From a virus (lineage: Duplodnaviria; Heunggongvirae; Uroviricota; Caudoviricetes): DNA of 29,144 bases. A program made the translations under genes and the position numbers. Each line of letters opens with the position of its first letter. The stretch's first letter is position 1. The notes under the pieces were generated by a model. It ran no database searches, had not been told where the DNA came from, and was given only the letters and a program-made list of their open reading frames with translations. This document shows, piece by piece, positions 3,640-27,804 of this stretch. The DNA is taken from IMG/VR virus record IMGVR_UViG_2737471841_000001, positions 1-29,144 of that record; one strand, written 5' to 3'.

Positions 3640-3806
3640 TTGACCCAAATCGAAGTTACGAACAAGAAAGCGTCGAGCGAGCTTTAACGTGCGCTAACTG
3701 CGGTCAGAAGCTGCATGTGCTGGAAGTTCACGTATGTGAGCACTGCTGCGCAGAACTGATGAGCGATCCGAATAGCTCAATGTACGAGGAAGAAGACGAT
3801 GAATGA
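3636..3806 (+). CDS. ninF: NinF (CxxC zinc-ribbon-like)
   Basis: [28 protein letters not shown] motif. Start placed at GTG 3636 (GTGA overlap with ninE stop); the alternative upstream start at 3594 (also GTG) gives 70 aa. Confidence 0.75.
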
Positions 3807-4521
3807 GTTAATAAATGGCAATGCCATCAAAATGACAAGCATTGAAATCGCTGAGTTGGTGGGTAAGCGTCATGACAATGTGAAACGTACCATCGAAACG
3901 CTGGCTAAAAATGGTGTTATCCGGCTTCCTCAAATTGAGGTTTCCGAAAGAATCAATAACTTAGGGTTCAATGTTCAGTACGAGCATTACGTCTTCGAGG
4001 GCGAACAAGGTAAGCGAGACAGTATTGTCGTTGTTGCCCAGTTGTCGCCAGAGTTCACCGCTCGCCTTGTTGACCGTTGGCGAGAGCTTGAAGAAGCTGC
4101 GGTTAATATCCCCAAAACGCTACCGGAAGCGTTGCGCCTTGCTGCTGACCTTGCTGAGCAGAAAATGCAACTGGAAAACCAGCTCGCAATTGCCGCACCT
4201 AAAGTTGAGTTTGCCGATCGCGTTGGCGAGGCCAGCGGAATTTTGATTGGAAACTTTGCAAAGGTTGTTGGAATTGGTCCAAACAAACTGTTTGCGTGGA
4301 TGCGCGATCACAAAATCCTTATTGCTTCAGGTTCCCGGCGCAATGTGCCAATGCAGGAATATATGGATCGCGGCTATTTCGCAGTGAAAGAAACAGCGGT
4401 CAACACAAATCACGGAATACAGATATCGTTCACCACAAAAATCACCGGGCGTGGTCAACAGTGGCTGACCAGAAAGCTGCTCGATAACGGAATGCTGAAA
4501 GTAACCGGGGAGGCTGCTTAA
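3799..4521 (+). CDS. Rha-family phage regulatory protein with KilA-C/antirepressor-like C-terminal domain
   Basis: N-terminal Rha-like signature IEIAELVGKRHDNVKRTIETL; C-terminal region resembles antirepressor KilAC domains. 240 aa. Confidence 0.75.
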   Translation: MNELINGNAIKMTSIEIAELVGKRHDNVKRTIETLAKNGVIRLPQIEVSERINNLGFNVQYEHYVFEGEQGKRDSIVVVAQLSPEFTARLVDRWRELEEAAVNIPKTLPEALRLAADLAEQKMQLENQLAIAAPKVEFADRVGEASGILIGNFAKVVGIGPNKLFAWMRDHKILIASGSRRNVPMQEYMDRGYFAVKETAVNTNHGIQISFTTKITGRGQQWLTRKLLDNGMLKVTGEAA

Positions 4522-4811
4522 TGGCTAACCTACGCAAAGAAGCGCGCAACAGAGAATGCCAGGTACGTATTTACGGCGTATGCAATGGTAATCCTGAAAC
4601 TACAGTTCTGGCACATTACCGGATGGCTGGAATTTGCGGAACGGGAATGAAGCCTGACGACCTGATCGGTGCATGGGCTTGTAGTGACTGCCACGCGGAG
4701 ATCGACCGACGCACCCATAATCTCGACAACAAAGACGCCAGACTTTACCACCTCGAAGGCGTGATCAGGACGCAGGCGATACTGCTGAAGGAGGGGAAGA
4801 TTAAGTCATGA
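4521..4811 (+). CDS. YbcO-like DUF1364 protein (Cys-rich putative nuclease)
   Basis: 96 aa, RECQVRIYGVCNGNPETTVLAHYR...CSDCHAEIDRR resembles E. coli DLP12 YbcO from memory; TAATG overlap with upstream gene. Confidence 0.8.
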   Translation: MANLRKEARNRECQVRIYGVCNGNPETTVLAHYRMAGICGTGMKPDDLIGAWACSDCHAEIDRRTHNLDNKDARLYHLEGVIRTQAILLKEGKIKS

Positions 4812-7898: not shown

Positions 7899-8429
7899 AT
7901 GAAGTACCCAACAGTTATTGTCAATGGTGTGTCCGTTCGTGTTGATGATGATGGACGCTACAACTTAAACGATCTCCATGCAGCAGCAGTTGCAAATGGA
8001 GAGGCTACAGAGCAACAGCGCCCAAGCCAGTTTTTGCGTAGCGCGCAGATAAAACGCTTCATAAAAGCACTGGAGGCCAAAGTGCAAAAAAGCACTTTGG
8101 AACAAATTCAACCACTTAAAATAATCAAAGGTGGTGCAGAACCAGGTGTGTGGGGTGTTGAACTTCTGGCAATCAGATATGCAGCATGGATTAAGCCGGA
8201 ATTTGAAATCGAAGTTTATGAAGTTTTCAAAACGGTCGTCCGTCTCGGCGTTGGCGCAATGTCCCGTCTGAATAGAATCGATCACATCATCAATACTGAA
8301 ACCAAAGCGATAAGCCAGTGCGCAAGCCAAATGGCTAAGTGGGGCGTTGGTGGGCGAAAAAGATTGCTTCATGTTGCACGTGAGAGAGCGGCAAATGAAG
8401 TGCAAATGTATTTGCCCGGAATGGTGTGA
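7899..8429 (+). CDS. KilA-N domain protein
   Basis: 176 aa; N-terminal VIVNGVSVRVDDDGRYNLNDLHAAA is typical of KilA-N/Bro-N DNA-binding domains. Confidence 0.75.
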   Translation: MKYPTVIVNGVSVRVDDDGRYNLNDLHAAAVANGEATEQQRPSQFLRSAQIKRFIKALEAKVQKSTLEQIQPLKIIKGGAEPGVWGVELLAIRYAAWIKPEFEIEVYEVFKTVVRLGVGAMSRLNRIDHIINTETKAISQCASQMAKWGVGGRKRLLHVARERAANEVQMYLPGMV

Positions 8430-16800: not shown

Positions 16801-18166
16801 TGCTGATTATATAGACCAACTTCCAGTCAATCTTTTAGCTACGTCTAAGGAGGTGTTGAATTCATCGGGATATCTTCGCTCATTCCCGGGCATTGCCAAA
16901 CGTTCTGATGTGAACGGTGTATCGCGCGGCGTCGAGTACAACATGGCGCAGAGTGCTGTTTATCGAGTGTGTGGTAGCAAGTTGTATAAGGGCGAAAGTG
17001 AGGTCGGTGATGTTGCCGGAAGTGGTCGCGTATCAATGGCGCATGGTCGGACATCACAGGCGGTAGGCGTTAATGGTCAACTGGTCGAGTATCGCTATGA
17101 TGGCACGGTTAAAACCGTCTCAAACTGGCCTGCAGACAGTGGATTTACTCAGTATGAGTTAGGTTCAGTCCGCGACATTACGCGCTTACGTGGGCGTTAT
17201 GCGTGGTCAAAAGACGGCACGGATTCATGGTTTATCACTGACCTTGAAGACGAATCGCATCCTGACCGTTACAGCGCACAATATCGCGCAGAATCGCAGC
17301 CGGACGGTATCCTCGGCATCGGAACATGGCGAGACTTCATCGTCTGCTTTGGTTCATCGACGATTGAATATTTTTCCCTGACTGGGGCAACTACCGTTGG
17401 TGCCGCTTTGTATGTCGCACAGCCATCACTGATGGTGCAGAAAGGCATTGCCGGAACTTACTGCAAAACGCCGTTTGCTGATTCCTATGCGTTTATCAGC
17501 AATCCGGCAACAGGTGCTCCGTCTGTATACATCATCGGCTCCGGTCAGGTATCACCAATCGCCAGCGCGAGCATTGAGAAAATCCTCCGCTCCTACACTG
17601 CTGATGAACTGGCTGATGGTGTGATGGAATCGTTGCGGTTTGATGCTCATGAGTTGCTGATTATCCATCTTTCGCGTCACGTCCTTGTGTACGACGCATC
17701 TTCAAGCGCCAATGGTCCGCAATGGTGTGTGCTGAAAACAGGCCTGTATGACGATGTGTACCGCGCTATCGACTTCATTTACGAAGGCAATCAGATAACG
17801 TGCGGCGATAAGCTGGAGTCCGTGACCGGGGAATTGCAGTTCGATATATCTTCACAATACGAAAAACAACAAGAGCATATTTTATATTCCCCTCTAATAA
17901 AGGCTGATAACGTTTTAATAAATGACCTTGAATTAGAAACATCTGGCGGCGTGTGTGATAGAATAGATAGAATATTTATATCAGCCACTACAGATGGAAT
18001 TAATTACGGTCGTGAGCAAATGGTTGTATTACAAAAACCATTTGTATATGACAATCGCGTTTTATGGCGAAAGGTTGGTCGAGTTAGACGCCTCATTGGA
18101 TTTAAATTCAGAGTTATTGCAAAAGGTCCTGTCACATTATCAGGCCTTTCTATTCGTGTAACATAA
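16748..18166 (+). CDS. 10: Tail hub / tail accessory protein (P22 gp10-like)
   Basis: 472 aa from ATG 16748 (MAIQQLPLMKGLGK...); the track start at 16739 is TTG. Position and length match P22 gp10. Confidence 0.9.
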   Translation: MAIQQLPLMKGLGKSAVNADYIDQLPVNLLATSKEVLNSSGYLRSFPGIAKRSDVNGVSRGVEYNMAQSAVYRVCGSKLYKGESEVGDVAGSGRVSMAHGRTSQAVGVNGQLVEYRYDGTVKTVSNWPADSGFTQYELGSVRDITRLRGRYAWSKDGTDSWFITDLEDESHPDRYSAQYRAESQPDGILGIGTWRDFIVCFGSSTIEYFSLTGATTVGAALYVAQPSLMVQKGIAGTYCKTPFADSYAFISNPATGAPSVYIIGSGQVSPIASASIEKILRSYTADELADGVMESLRFDAHELLIIHLSRHVLVYDASSSANGPQWCVLKTGLYDDVYRAIDFIYEGNQITCGDKLESVTGELQFDISSQYEKQQEHILYSPLIKADNVLINDLELETSGGVCDRIDRIFISATTDGINYGREQMVVLQKPFVYDNRVLWRKVGRVRRLIGFKFRVIAKGPVTLSGLSIRVT

Positions 18167-24303: not shown

Positions 24304-24789
24304 TTATCTAATGTTGCTGCTACTGTTGCATGTTACCGTGTTTCCAAATCCTGAATTGCAGTTTGTATATGTGTCAACGCGTGTTGGGTAAGGTTGAGTT
24401 ATAACAGGCTGGCGCGCTTTTTGCTCGATCGCTTGCATTGTGTTTACAGCCTGATAATTCAATAAAGCCTGCTGGAATGCTTGGCTTTGTGCTATTTGTT
24501 GGGCTTGTTCTTGGCTTTGTAATTGAACATAAAGATTCTGAAGCTCAAGTCTTGCCTGTGCGTCACTTATCTTGCCTTCATCGACACCTTGCCCGAGCAT
24601 CTTTGCAGCAAGGACATACAGCTTAGGTGTTGGTGCTGATGCCATGCGTGAGTCGTTCTTCACACTGGCATCAAGGCAATTAGCCATATCGCTAAGCTTT
24701 TGATAGCGTTGTTCGCAACTTGCTTGATAGTCACTTACTTTTGCGCATCCAACCAGCAGAAGCGGGATAATTAACAGTGATTTTTTCAT
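24304..24789 (-). CDS. Secreted lipoprotein of unknown function (candidate lysogeny-expressed moron)
   Basis: 161 aa from ATG 24789 (AAGGAG 9 nt upstream); signal peptide with lipobox MKKSLLIIPLLLVGC; four further Cys; Gln-rich helical middle. Confidence 0.7.
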   Translation of the reverse strand: MKKSLLIIPLLLVGCAKVSDYQASCEQRYQKLSDMANCLDASVKNDSRMASAPTPKLYVLAAKMLGQGVDEGKISDAQARLELQNLYVQLQSQEQAQQIAQSQAFQQALLNYQAVNTMQAIEQKARQPVITQPYPTRVDTYTNCNSGFGNTVTCNSSSNIR

Positions 24790-24859: not shown

Positions 24860-25159
24860 CTATGTTTCCTTTTTATTATTGCTATACATGGTCTTAAGCG
24901 TTTCAAAAACCATTTTCTTAACCATATCAGATTGTTGTTCTGCCATACGCTCTGCATCGTCAATGTAAACTGATGCAGAGCTTTGTTTAGCCAATGATTC
25001 TTCAATCGCTGCAATTATCTCTGAGTTCAGCGACCTGTTATTCATCTTCGCGCGCTGTTTAATTTTCGCGTGGAGTTCATGCGGAAGTCTCAAGTGAAAC
25101 TGCGCCTCGTCGTATTTGCTGTACATCCTTGATGCCTCACCAGTTGGGTGGAATGGCAT
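24860..25159 (-). CDS. mnt: Mnt-like ribbon-helix-helix (Arc/MetJ family) repressor
   Basis: RLPHELHAKIKQRAKMNNRSLNSEIIAAIEESL ... DDAERMAEQQSDMVKKMVFETLK resembles P22 Mnt; start may be the internal ATG at 25126. Confidence 0.8.
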   Translation of the reverse strand: MPFHPTGEASRMYSKYDEAQFHLRLPHELHAKIKQRAKMNNRSLNSEIIAAIEESLAKQSSASVYIDDAERMAEQQSDMVKKMVFETLKTMYSNNKKET

Positions 25160-25199
25160 CGTAACCTACTGGATAAATACTCAATAGTACCATTTCGGT

Positions 25200-25222
25200 A
25201 TGCAACCACATCATGGTTGCAT
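25200..25222. promoter_or_regulatory. 23-bp perfect palindrome, candidate operator between mnt and tailspike
   Basis: ATGCAACCA-CATCA-TGGTTGCAT (9-bp arms, 5-bp spacer) in the 88-bp divergent region, 26 bp upstream of the tailspike ATG. Confidence 0.4.
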
Positions 25223-25247
25223 CATATCATTCGTCTGGAGCAATGAA

Positions 25248-27305
25248 ATGTCAGATATCACCGCAAATGTTGTGGTAAGCATGCCTTCTCAACTCTTCAC
25301 TATGGCTCGTTCTTTTAAAGCGGTAGCCAATGGCGAAATTTATATCGGGAAAATTGACACTGACCCGGTAAATCCTGAAAACCGGATTCAGGTTTATGTA
25401 GAGAACGAAGACGGCTCTCACGTTCCTGTTTCGCAACCAATCATCATTAACGCTGCTGGTTACCCGGTATATAACGGACAGATTGCCAAGTTCGTAACTG
25501 TGCAAGGCCATTCTATGGCTGTTTATGATGCGTATGGTGCACAGCAATTCTATTTTCCTAATGTGCTGAAGTACGATCCTGATCAGTTAAGGCAGGAGCT
25601 GGCGGGGCCAAACGGCGTAGATCTGGTAAACGGAGCGGCAAAGCAGACTGATGTTAATAAGCTGAACATTCACACTAGTGGCTACGTCAATGTGCTTGAG
25701 TATATCCCTGAAAACCTGCATCAGTACCTTACAGACTTGGCTCAGTCACAAACGAACGCAGGGGACCTAATTTCCTATCTTAATGCAGCGTCAGCATACT
25801 GCGAAAAGAACCACAAAGACCTTGTATTTCCGTTCGGATATTACTTTGTATCAAACACCTTCATGTTACCTGCTGGGGTAAAGGTGATAGGTCTTGGCTA
25901 CCCGTACATCCTTGCTCTAACCCCATTTAACGCTTCAAATATTATTGTAAGTTGCGATAAAACAGGACAGCCAACTTATGATATGGATATGTTTCATATA
26001 AACGGTCCTGGCCCTAGCAACCTCGACATGGTGGGGTTGCGAGTCGGCGGATGTCGTAATAGCAAATTTTCAAGGATAATCGTTACCAGTTGCTTCTCTG
26101 CCGGGGTAGAGGTTTACCCAACAGTAGCAACATCAGGAGATGTTGAAAACCTACACCTTGACCATGTCTGGACCGTACTGTCTGGAGGGGTGCGCTTTAA
26201 AGCTAACGCCTCTATAGCTAGGGGCAATATCACGGATGCAACTGTATCAAACTGTCAATTAACGACTGGAGATGCAACCTTGTCCGGACCTCCAGCTATC
26301 ACTATTACAGGGGCGCCTGGCAGGCAGATATTCGGGATTGCTTTTAAACGGGTATTTACACAAACGACTGACCAGGACCATATAGTAGTAAATCCAAATG
26401 GTGGAAGCGTATTCCATAATACATTTAGTGATATAAGTGGTGAGTCATGGACTATTGCCGCAGGCGGTATTTCTGGCTCATTCGCTAAGAATGCGCTATA
26501 TGTACTCGATGGTGCATTTACCACCAATTCATTCCGCGACTTCTATAAACAGGGTTTGCCTGGCAACGGTATTACTTTAGGTGTTGGCTCATCTGGTAAT
26601 CTGTTTGACGGGCTTCGATTCATGGACAGAAATGTTGTTGGATATAACAACAAGTGGTTAATCATACCATCTGGAGCAAACTCAAACAGTTTTCACGCCT
26701 GCTACTTCGATGGTTGTTTTAATCGCGCCGATTCTGGATATGGTGGCGTAGCGGCTAATTATGTATTCAGAGCTTTTGACGGTAAGATTTCTGACTTGAG
26801 CGGTAGCACAAAATTTGACACACCGGAGATAAGAGACGTTTCTCCAGTTCTCATTAAGAGGTCAACGATATTCGCTATTAGTGGCAACCAATTAGTTAAC
26901 TATCCAGTAACGGGATGCGCCTTTGCAACGACTGCCGATGGCATTAGCGTTGCCGTCCCTGCTGGTAACACCCCCTACTTTCTTACCATACCTTTTACCC
27001 CCACTGCGGGATTCGCAGGTAAATTTATCGGACTTACTATCAAATATGTATGCGGGGCCATGAATGGTATGACCCTGTCGGCGGATATCTGCGGCGCAGG
27101 TTCCGGAGTAACAGATTTAACCACGGGTAAAGCAAATGTGTTTAGCATGTATGGCGCTTACAACTCAGATAACAAAACCGTCACATTAACATTTGGGGGG
27201 GACAGAACGGCGCAGGCTAACATGGCTTTACAAGATATTATAATCACCGAAGGTGCTAACATTCCTTACATACCAAACTTCCGAAAAATATACATTGAGA
27301 GTTAA
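25248..27305 (+). CDS. 9: Tailspike (P22 gp9-like head-binding N-terminus, divergent receptor-binding domain)
   Basis: ATG 25248 with GGAG 9 nt upstream; [11 protein letters not shown]...[21 protein letters not shown]...[13 protein letters not shown]...VLKYDPDQ matches the gp9 head-binding domain; remainder differs from P22 gp9. Confidence 0.9.
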
Positions 27306-27420: not shown

Positions 27421-27804
27421 GGATTCCCGAGTCCAGCATAAGACTACGTTGAACAACGCATATCGCTCGACAAGCGCATCATAACCAGGCCAGCGGCTAC
27501 GTACTTCATGCGAGCAGGTTCGACACACTACCGGGAAGGCATCATTAATGGAGCGCTACTCGTCGTTGATGCGTCACTTACGCCATGCGACGGCTCATTG
27601 CTGGTATGCAGAATGGAAAGTGAGCTGAGGATAAAGCGATATCGAACTCATCCAAAGCCCCACCTTGAGGATTTGCAAACAGGAAGGCGAGAAGAGATAC
27701 CTGCATACGATGACGGAACTAGCCCGGATGCGATATTTGGTGTTATCACTTACATCATCAACGATTCGCGTTCTGGTGAGTTTGGTGATTGTCCGGTGAC
27801 ATAG
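27421..27804 (+). pseudogene. UmuD'-like (S24 LexA-type) gene remnant, interrupted by an in-frame stop
   Basis: Frame 1 reads GFPSPA-stop-DYVEQRISLDKRIITRPAATYFMRAGSTHYREG...; GFPSPAADYVEQRI is the UmuD region just after its cleavage site. TAA at 27439-27441; the ASGDSM-equivalent reads AGSTHY. Confidence 0.55.

Follow-up and report, generated by a model that had tools for sequence, protein, structure and literature searches.

Between mnt and the tailspike gene of the window (the whole 29,144-nt stretch of DNA analysed here), positions 25127-25247 are read, with a probability that we put at roughly 0.6, as the control region of an mnt-only ant moron, in which the Mnt operator would lie at 25187-25201 and the conspicuous inverted repeat would be a hairpin in the tailspike leader. 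This reading builds on tool results for anatomy, homology, conservation and co-variation. The window corresponds to the right arm of a P22-like (Lederbergvirus) prophage, with the order nin-region genes, Q antiterminator, head and ejection genes, a lipoprotein-like gene, mnt, tailspike, a UmuD-like fragment and integrase. The Arc/Mnt-family gene (24860-25126, minus strand) is divergent from the Head_binding tailspike gene (ATG at 25248), and no coding sequence lies between them. That is, mnt is the sole immI gene between the gene 16 homolog and the tailspike gene, which is the L/ST64T-type arrangement, and none of the marks of a complete P22-type immI region (arc divergent from mnt, ant and sar after arc, and a strong Pant over O-mnt) was found. 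Neither the ORF list nor the domain search revealed arc, ant or sar in the mnt-tailspike spacer, where Rfam also gave no match for sar; no ORF or RHH gene is present in these 121 bp, and the tailspike gene comes directly after. The domain and ORF data thereby agree with the initial annotation, which had described an immI region reduced to mnt and facing the tailspike gene. Its comparison with P22 was likewise borne out by the P22 sequence, in which mnt, arc, sar and ant all precede gene 9, in that order.

The length of the spacer had to be corrected. The 88 bp given initially were counted from the ATG of the longest ORF at 25159, whereas mnt starts at 25126, which makes the spacer 121 bp; this start was chosen because the context of the ATG at 25159 is not conserved in frame and because PGAP annotates an identical protein as 88 aa. 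The 99-aa ORF was rejected as the true Mnt, its N-terminal extension being out of frame in Serratia and interrupted by a stop in Rahnella, and its ATG (25157-25159) sits inside a TACGATGC box that is common to all relatives. On the other side of the spacer, the tailspike gene (25248-27305, plus strand) was recognized by Pfam Head_binding (4.7e-66; head-binding domain, residues 1-113), and megablast matched its 5′ end to the tailspike 5′ ends of Sf101, IME10, HK620, Sf6 and CUS-3. By direct reading, its Shine-Dalgarno sequence is TGGAG (25236-25240, plus strand), with CTGGAGCAA kept in P22-like leaders. The left arm of the inverted repeat begins with an ATG (25200) that is likewise in frame with the tailspike gene (ORF 25200-27305) and is without a Shine-Dalgarno sequence; in type B leaders (see below) the equivalent ATG opens a 19-codon ORF whose TAA overlaps the tailspike ATG.

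The product of the 88-aa mnt homolog combines an RHH domain with the Mnt C-terminal tetramerisation domain (Pfam Arc, PF03869, 1.1e-14; Repressor_Mnt, PF11423, 3.9e-12). Its best PDB matches were 1MNT (5.7e-19, residues 6-78), which is P22 Mnt 1-76, and 1QEY (1.2e-6), the Mnt tetramerisation domain, and it is 47% identical to P22 Mnt. As had been noted from the window, the recognition strand is unlike that of P22, and sequence and PDB comparison gave QFHLRLP versus HFNFRMP. The mnt ORF is intact in 197 of 199 related loci, and a dN/dS of 0.05-0.15 in the DNA-binding half among these loci indicates purifying selection. Because of this selection the orphan mnt is presumably still active in some way, that is, it presumably still does something, and its persistence together with the purifying selection argues for a role beyond that of a mere remnant. 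Mnt homologs are often misnamed 'partition protein ATPase' or 'chromosome segregation ATPase' (RefSeq phage records; PHROG 795, phrog_795).

Direct reading also gave a probable Shine-Dalgarno sequence for mnt, GGTGAGG (25135-25141, minus strand), which is kept in Rahnella, Klebsiella and type B. Upstream of it we infer a putative Pmnt (25158-25184, minus strand) with a -35 box TTGAGT (25184-25179) and a -10 box TACGAT (25163-25158), spaced by 15 bp in the window versus 17 bp in types B and C. This element occupies the position of P22 Pmnt (TTGAGA-17-TATCAT), its CTCAATA and ATCGTA boxes are kept in all QFHLR loci, and it scores under the threshold of a consensus promoter scan. The -10-like sequences that had been reported in the spacer did not hold up in that scan, which covered a 1.3-kb region and detected no convincing sigma-70 promoter in either direction: the sole consensus match, CTGACA-17-AATGAT, is on the minus strand, and shuffles of the scanned region give 2.8 matches by chance. 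A sigma-70 promoter towards the tailspike gene was rejected, given the lack of any plus-strand consensus match and the score of only 7/12 for hand-read candidates such as TACTCA-17-TGCAAT. At the position of the Pant -35 box, the window has GAATGG versus TTGACA in P22, whose strong Pant (TTGACA-17-TATATT) overlaps O-mnt.

Judging from sequence, the binding site of Mnt is most likely GTACCATTTCGGTAT (25187-25201; TACC-N5-GGTA), beside the palindrome, and not the palindrome itself. This candidate was selected by its position, its conservation and its co-variation with the recognition strand. As to position, it is the homolog of P22 O-mnt: in the window CTCAATA (25180-25186) is directly followed by GTACCATTTCGGTAT, and P22 reads TATATT-CTCAATA-GGTCCACGGTGGACC, in which CTCAATA complements the -35 box of Pmnt; the operator directly follows CTCAATA in Gally and L as well. 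A dyad beside the putative Pmnt -35 box, by which an mnt-only moron can be recognized, is therefore found in the window, with the same geometry as the GTCC-N5-GGAC of P22. As to conservation, GTACC-N5-GGTAY occurs at the O-mnt-homologous position in every QFHLR locus, though the sequence downstream diverges, and the site is kept in the Escherichia, Salmonella, Citrobacter, Klebsiella, Serratia and Rahnella loci that encode a QFHLR Mnt (seven genera are given overall). More symmetric versions exist (TACCGTTTCGGTA, CATACCATTTCGGTATG and GTACCTTAACGGTAC, the last in Rahnella), with perfect 5-bp arms in Rahnella and type B; the window copy is only 4+4 symmetric, and six related contexts carry a G-to-T change in the right half-site. 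No second copy was found in the 29-kb window or in the complete Sf101 genome. A palindrome in Sf101, GTACCAGATGTGTAC (L211:18350-18364), lies ~36 bp upstream of the integrase start and shares the GTAC-N7-GTAC outline of the Mnt site, a resemblance that is probably due to chance.

Co-variation was followed on half-sites aligned at the operator centre. The half-site is ATAGGTCCAC in P22, whose strand is HFNFR (H6, N8, R10); ATAAGACCAC in Gally and L, with QFNLR (Q, N, R); ATATCAC in Phlomobacter, with QFNFR (Q, N, R); and ATAGTACCAT in the window class, with QFHLR (Q, H, R). Operator position -5 is T with His at residue 6, and with Gln it is A in Gally, L and the window class and T in Phlomobacter; that is, A in two of the three Gln lineages and T in the third. 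The N8-to-H change tracks operator positions -6 and -1. In classic genetic work, His6 reportedly makes its contacts at operator positions 5/6 from the centre. The expectation that a different recognition strand implies an operator other than that of P22 is thus supported, the half-sites differing alongside residues 6 and 8, and the QFHLR Mnt with its candidate site would represent a new specificity class within the Mnt/O-mnt family. Of the initial proposal of an operator in the spacer before the tailspike gene, the general idea survives, with 25187-25201 as the candidate, and the choice of the palindrome does not, as the palindrome is lacking in other loci with the same Mnt.

What had been reported as a perfect 23-bp palindrome (25200-25222, plus strand) does exist as an inverted repeat, in which only the 9-bp arms, ATGCAACCA (25200-25208) and TGGTTGCAT (25214-25222), are complementary, around a non-symmetric 5-nt centre, CATCA. 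From the end of the repeat it is 13 nt to the Shine-Dalgarno sequence of the tailspike gene and 25 nt to its ATG. The 29-kb window has three perfect 9-bp inverted repeats with short loops versus ~1 expected, and 0.004 would be expected in this spacer; the repeat is therefore unremarkable window-wide, and the case for its having a meaning must come from sequence comparison. The other two are CCAAAGTGC-AAAAAA-GCACTTTGG (8077-8100) and CAAATGGTT-N10-AACCATTTG (18017-18044). Like the candidate operator, the repeat is single-copy, both in the window and across the complete genome of Sf101. Among relatives it is limited to one sub-lineage (type A), and ~88% of type A copies are imperfect: of 95 distinct type A contexts, 11 show full complementarity of the arms, seven of them as T-A, and the exact arm sequence of the window was found in four (~4%), the window included. 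The commonest form, ATGCAATCA (82% of the 95), has a single T.G mispair, and a compensating TGATTGCAT accounts for 7%, giving the series C-G, T.G, T-A at this place in the stem. Since the left arm overlaps an ATGYAAY block that is kept in all classes, part of the stem is conserved independently of pairing.

No other dyad in the spacer is as conspicuous as this repeat, an RHH tetramer recognizes a pair of half-sites, and AACCA, present in the arms, differs by a single base from TACCA in the adjacent site; moreover, the sole promoter match (CTGACA-17-AATGAT, minus strand) would initiate inside the right arm. These points would fit a repeat that serves as the operator of the Mnt homolog, either autoregulatory or acting on tailspike expression. 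Such a role is nevertheless improbable, since the repeat is not co-inherited with the QFHLR recognition strand: the same Mnt occurs with leaders of type B (P22-like), type C (Citrobacter and Klebsiella, with a similar stem in Rahnella) and type D, and in a Serratia locus, all of which lack the repeat. Furthermore, its inner half-sites read AACC-N7-GGTT as against TACC-N5-GGTA, most type A copies are imperfect as described above, a better candidate is available at the O-mnt position, and similar hairpins occur in phages without mnt. A cI/Cro-type operator was also rejected, the repeat being unlike the Sf101 OR region.

The best reading of the inverted repeat is that of an RNA leader hairpin of the tailspike mRNA. 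The predicted RNA fold of the repeat is -11.6 kcal/mol (z -3.0). Every leader type that we examined has a stem-loop that lacks a U-tract and whose end falls 22-35 nt short of the tailspike ATG, as seen in P22, HK620, eps34, L, CUS-3, Sf6, type C and HNH-associated leaders; the z-scores of the leader folds are all negative, from -0.5 to -4.7. The stem-loops are CCGTAGC-N3-GCTGCGG in P22, HK620, eps34, L, CUS-3 and Gally, CCGGACAGG-N6-CTTGTCCGG in Sf6, CCGCAG-N5-CTGTGG in type C, AGCAAT-N4-ATTGCT in the HNH-associated leader, ATTCAAT-N9-ATTGAAT in the L085 locus and ATGCAACCA-N5-TGGTTGCAT in the window. Because Sf6 and HK620 have the hairpin and no mnt, the hairpin is separable from Mnt. An intrinsic terminator was rejected for either strand: there is no U-tract, the sequence after the stem being CATATCATTCG on the plus strand and ACCGAAATGG on the minus strand, and the terminator scan does not list the repeat. 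Rfam gave no match to a known RNA family in the region, and no published function or description of a tailspike leader hairpin was found in the literature searched.

The variation within the stems bears on whether the repeat has any function. The substitutions seen in the stems tend to be those after which only plus-strand RNA still pairs, i.e. C-to-T opposite G in type A and, in HK620 and Gally, A-to-G and C-to-T. Compensatory changes were observed as well, namely T-A in seven type A contexts and two double changes in L085, and type C stems show paired A/U insertions. In the type A stem 97.7% of cells are paired, with one double change, and 26 of 500 shuffles reach the covariation score, a weak signal for type A by itself; selection on stem pairing is therefore rated as suggestive. 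The repeat could instead be a functionless by-product left at the junction when arc and ant were removed by deletion or recombination, with a left arm kept for other reasons and a right arm that resembles the P22-type CCTTGCAT leader by descent. The weak covariation statistics would suit this explanation, as would the number of such repeats in the window relative to expectation, a per-site variation in the repeat no lower than in the flanks, and a commonest allele that is mispaired as DNA. It is rendered rather unlikely, although less so than the role as Mnt operator, by the independent recurrence, in at least five leader types, of hairpins of unrelated sequence at this position, by the compensatory changes and paired insertions, and by the bias of single-base stem changes to plus-strand G.U.

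A Serratia marcescens contig (L086; reverse strand of the locus) has, ~60-170 nt upstream of mnt, the operator followed by a hairpin, ACCACG-N9-CGTGGT, and then after ~45 nt a clear intrinsic terminator, GCCAGC-CTAACC-GCTGGC-T7, and a different receptor-binding gene. This arrangement could be either a remnant resembling P22 t-ant or a short Mnt-controlled transcript.

We also considered the repeat as a DNA site for some other protein, i.e. a regulator encoded by phage or host, or else a nuclease or recombinase that acts where modules join. HNH endonuclease cassettes do insert ~40 bp downstream in relatives, and a 'boundary sequence' is annotated before the tailspike gene of CUS-3; against these stand the absence of a second copy from the window and Sf101, the dissimilarity to the Sf101 cI/Cro operator region, and the tolerated asymmetry, which fits RNA pairing and not a DNA dyad. 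Of all the explanations weighed, this one seems the hardest to credit.

As an observation in its own right, an HNH endonuclease gene lies between the mnt cassette and the tailspike gene at L215:1899-2530 (E. coli EC1515), in L027, L035 and L058, and at L382:2341-2850 (Rahnella). The E. coli/IMG-VR loci L215, L027, L035 and L058 depart from the window right after codon 5 of the type A tailspike gene (ATGTCAGATATCACC), leaving a 15-nt stub, beyond which in L215 the tailspike gene starts anew, with a Shine-Dalgarno sequence and a hairpin of its own. The insertion point looks like a homing or cassette-exchange hotspot.

From these results we infer Mnt binding, the promoters and any function of the hairpin, and the arrangement that we favour, with operator and leader hairpin as separate devices, would comprise four elements. 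The first would be the mnt ribosome-binding site with a weak leftward Pmnt. Second, tetrameric QFHLR-type Mnt would bind the two half-sites of 25187-25201, abutting the Pmnt -35 box; as the Pant -35 box is gone and there is no arc or ant, this binding would mainly autoregulate mnt, and it might also obstruct rightward transcription. Third, the late-operon read-through message, which would run antisense across the lipoprotein gene and mnt, would carry the repeat as a stem-loop. The hairpin would then most likely act at the RNA level, as a protective or processing structure that gives the tailspike cistron a defined 5′ end downstream of ~950 nt of antisense RNA that is not translated. The fourth element would be the tailspike ribosome-binding site.

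Whether Mnt might act elsewhere was considered for the Rha/KilAC antirepressor-family gene (3799-4521, plus strand; Pfam ANT and Phage_pRha; phrog_63, 4e-99). It is the sole Ant-family gene and maps to the nin region, with NinB on one side and HNH, RusA and Q on the other; this position puts it in the early-right operon, under the primary repressor. A remote Mnt target of this kind was rejected, with no second copy of either motif in the window or the whole of Sf101; the motif search of the window gave no Mnt-type operator site near 3799-4521, and we see no sign in these data of Mnt control of the antirepressor, nor any support for the proposal that the latter has replaced Ant. The Rha and KilAC gene directly precedes an HNH endonuclease gene (4521-4811, plus strand), with overlapping stop and start (3799-4811).

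The neighbours of mnt and of the tailspike gene deserve brief mention. The lipoprotein-like moron gene (24304-24789, minus strand; phrog_6067, 1.6e-110; no Pfam match) has a lipobox LLVGC (MKKSLLIIPLLLVGC) and lies downstream of mnt, where P22 has sieA; because it is absent from Sf101, it is not an obligate partner of mnt. An extended -10 promoter specific to this gene (TGATATCCT) possibly lies after the mnt stop codon, and the gene could be a superinfection-exclusion or host-fitness factor. A UmuD-like/S24 peptidase C-terminal fragment (27508-27804, plus strand; phrog_10470, 1.4e-30) between tailspike and integrase is probably a truncated gene at the prophage end.

The QFHLR-type mnt is in every case an orphan beside a receptor-binding-protein gene, in Escherichia, Shigella, Salmonella, Citrobacter, Klebsiella, Serratia and Rahnella, and in none of the 199 loci, nor in the contexts from five further genomes or metagenomes, does it stand beside arc and ant; an adjoining arc/ant pair would have supported immunity in trans. 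A bolder and rather doubtful proposal is that the QFHLR mnt and GTACC-N5-GGTAY form, rather than a remnant in decay, a stable, selected and self-contained orphan module just upstream of the receptor-binding-protein gene, spread over at least seven enterobacterial genera, with a function new for Mnt. Were it correct, the module could act as a gate for transcription entering the tailspike gene, to which the leader hairpin would add another layer, or it could provide immunity in trans by silencing ant in superinfecting relatives. One E. coli prophage (MB06231, L381:4493-7179) carries a complete second immI-like module besides the QFHLR mnt cassette at its tailspike gene. There a 128-aa Arc-family gene is divergent from a 58-aa Arc-family gene, which is followed by a P22AR-C antirepressor, and the operators of the immI-like module and of the QFHLR mnt cassette are unrelated.

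Nothing here would surprise a P22 specialist. The analysis corrects a natural misreading, in which the most obvious dyad is taken as the operator, and it supplies a concrete candidate operator for what may be a second specificity class of a textbook repressor. It also adds a natural case of protein-DNA co-variation (residues 6 and 8 versus operator positions 5/6 and 1) to the classic work on Mnt specificity. Moreover, it flags a recurrent stem-loop before Lederbergvirus tailspike genes, which may be relevant to expression of the final late-operon gene beyond a variable moron.

The mnt-only layout is already described, is not unusual and is common in E. coli, where the version of the window was found in 245 of 5426 complete genomes. 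The region between gene 16 and the tailspike gene has been named the "ant moron", in which ST64T, ST104 and Para1 have only mnt and one gene of unknown function, and the P22 moron affects the amount of late transcription that reaches the tailspike gene (Villafane et al. 2008, PMC2629481); phage L is among the mnt-only cases (phage L genome paper, PMC8022706). [quoted passage not shown] An mnt facing the tailspike gene behind other leaders is also found in Gally, VSe13 and 720R6, and Gally, VSe13 and phage L have no arc or ant. Compared with P22 immI, the window shares the position between the gene 16 homolog and the tailspike gene, a homologous Mnt with the same two domains, and a CTCAATA box followed by a two-half-site operator at equal distance from mnt. 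It differs in lacking arc, sar, ant and O-arc, in the replacement of the Pant -35 box TTGACA by non-promoter sequence, and in having QFHLR and GTACC-N5-GGTAY where P22 has HFNFR and GGTCCAC-N-GTGGACC. Phage L has a palindromic operator in a spacer of ~135 bp directly before the tailspike gene, followed by a leader hairpin (mnt, CCACAATA, AAGACCACCGTGGTCTT, CCGTAGCCACGCTGCGG, tailspike), which is the order proposed for the window; its Mnt is of the QFNLR type, its operator is TAAGACCACCGTGGTCTTA and its hairpin is the P22-type CCGTAGC-CAC-GCTGCGG, so that the window would stand in another specificity class, with an unrelated hairpin sequence. The version of the window is shared by Sf101 and IME10 (both Lederbergvirus), which show 94-95% DNA identity to the window over mnt, the spacer and the tailspike 5′ end and ~90% Mnt identity over the residues aligned by tblastn; their spacer equals that of the window except for one left-arm base (ATGCAATCA), they lack the lipoprotein gene downstream of mnt, and their Mnt is mis-annotated as a 'partition/chromosome segregation ATPase'. 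Finally, Sf6 and HK620, although without mnt and, in Sf6, with an unrelated stem sequence, share with the window a stem-loop that has no U-tract and precedes the tailspike ATG by 22-35 nt.
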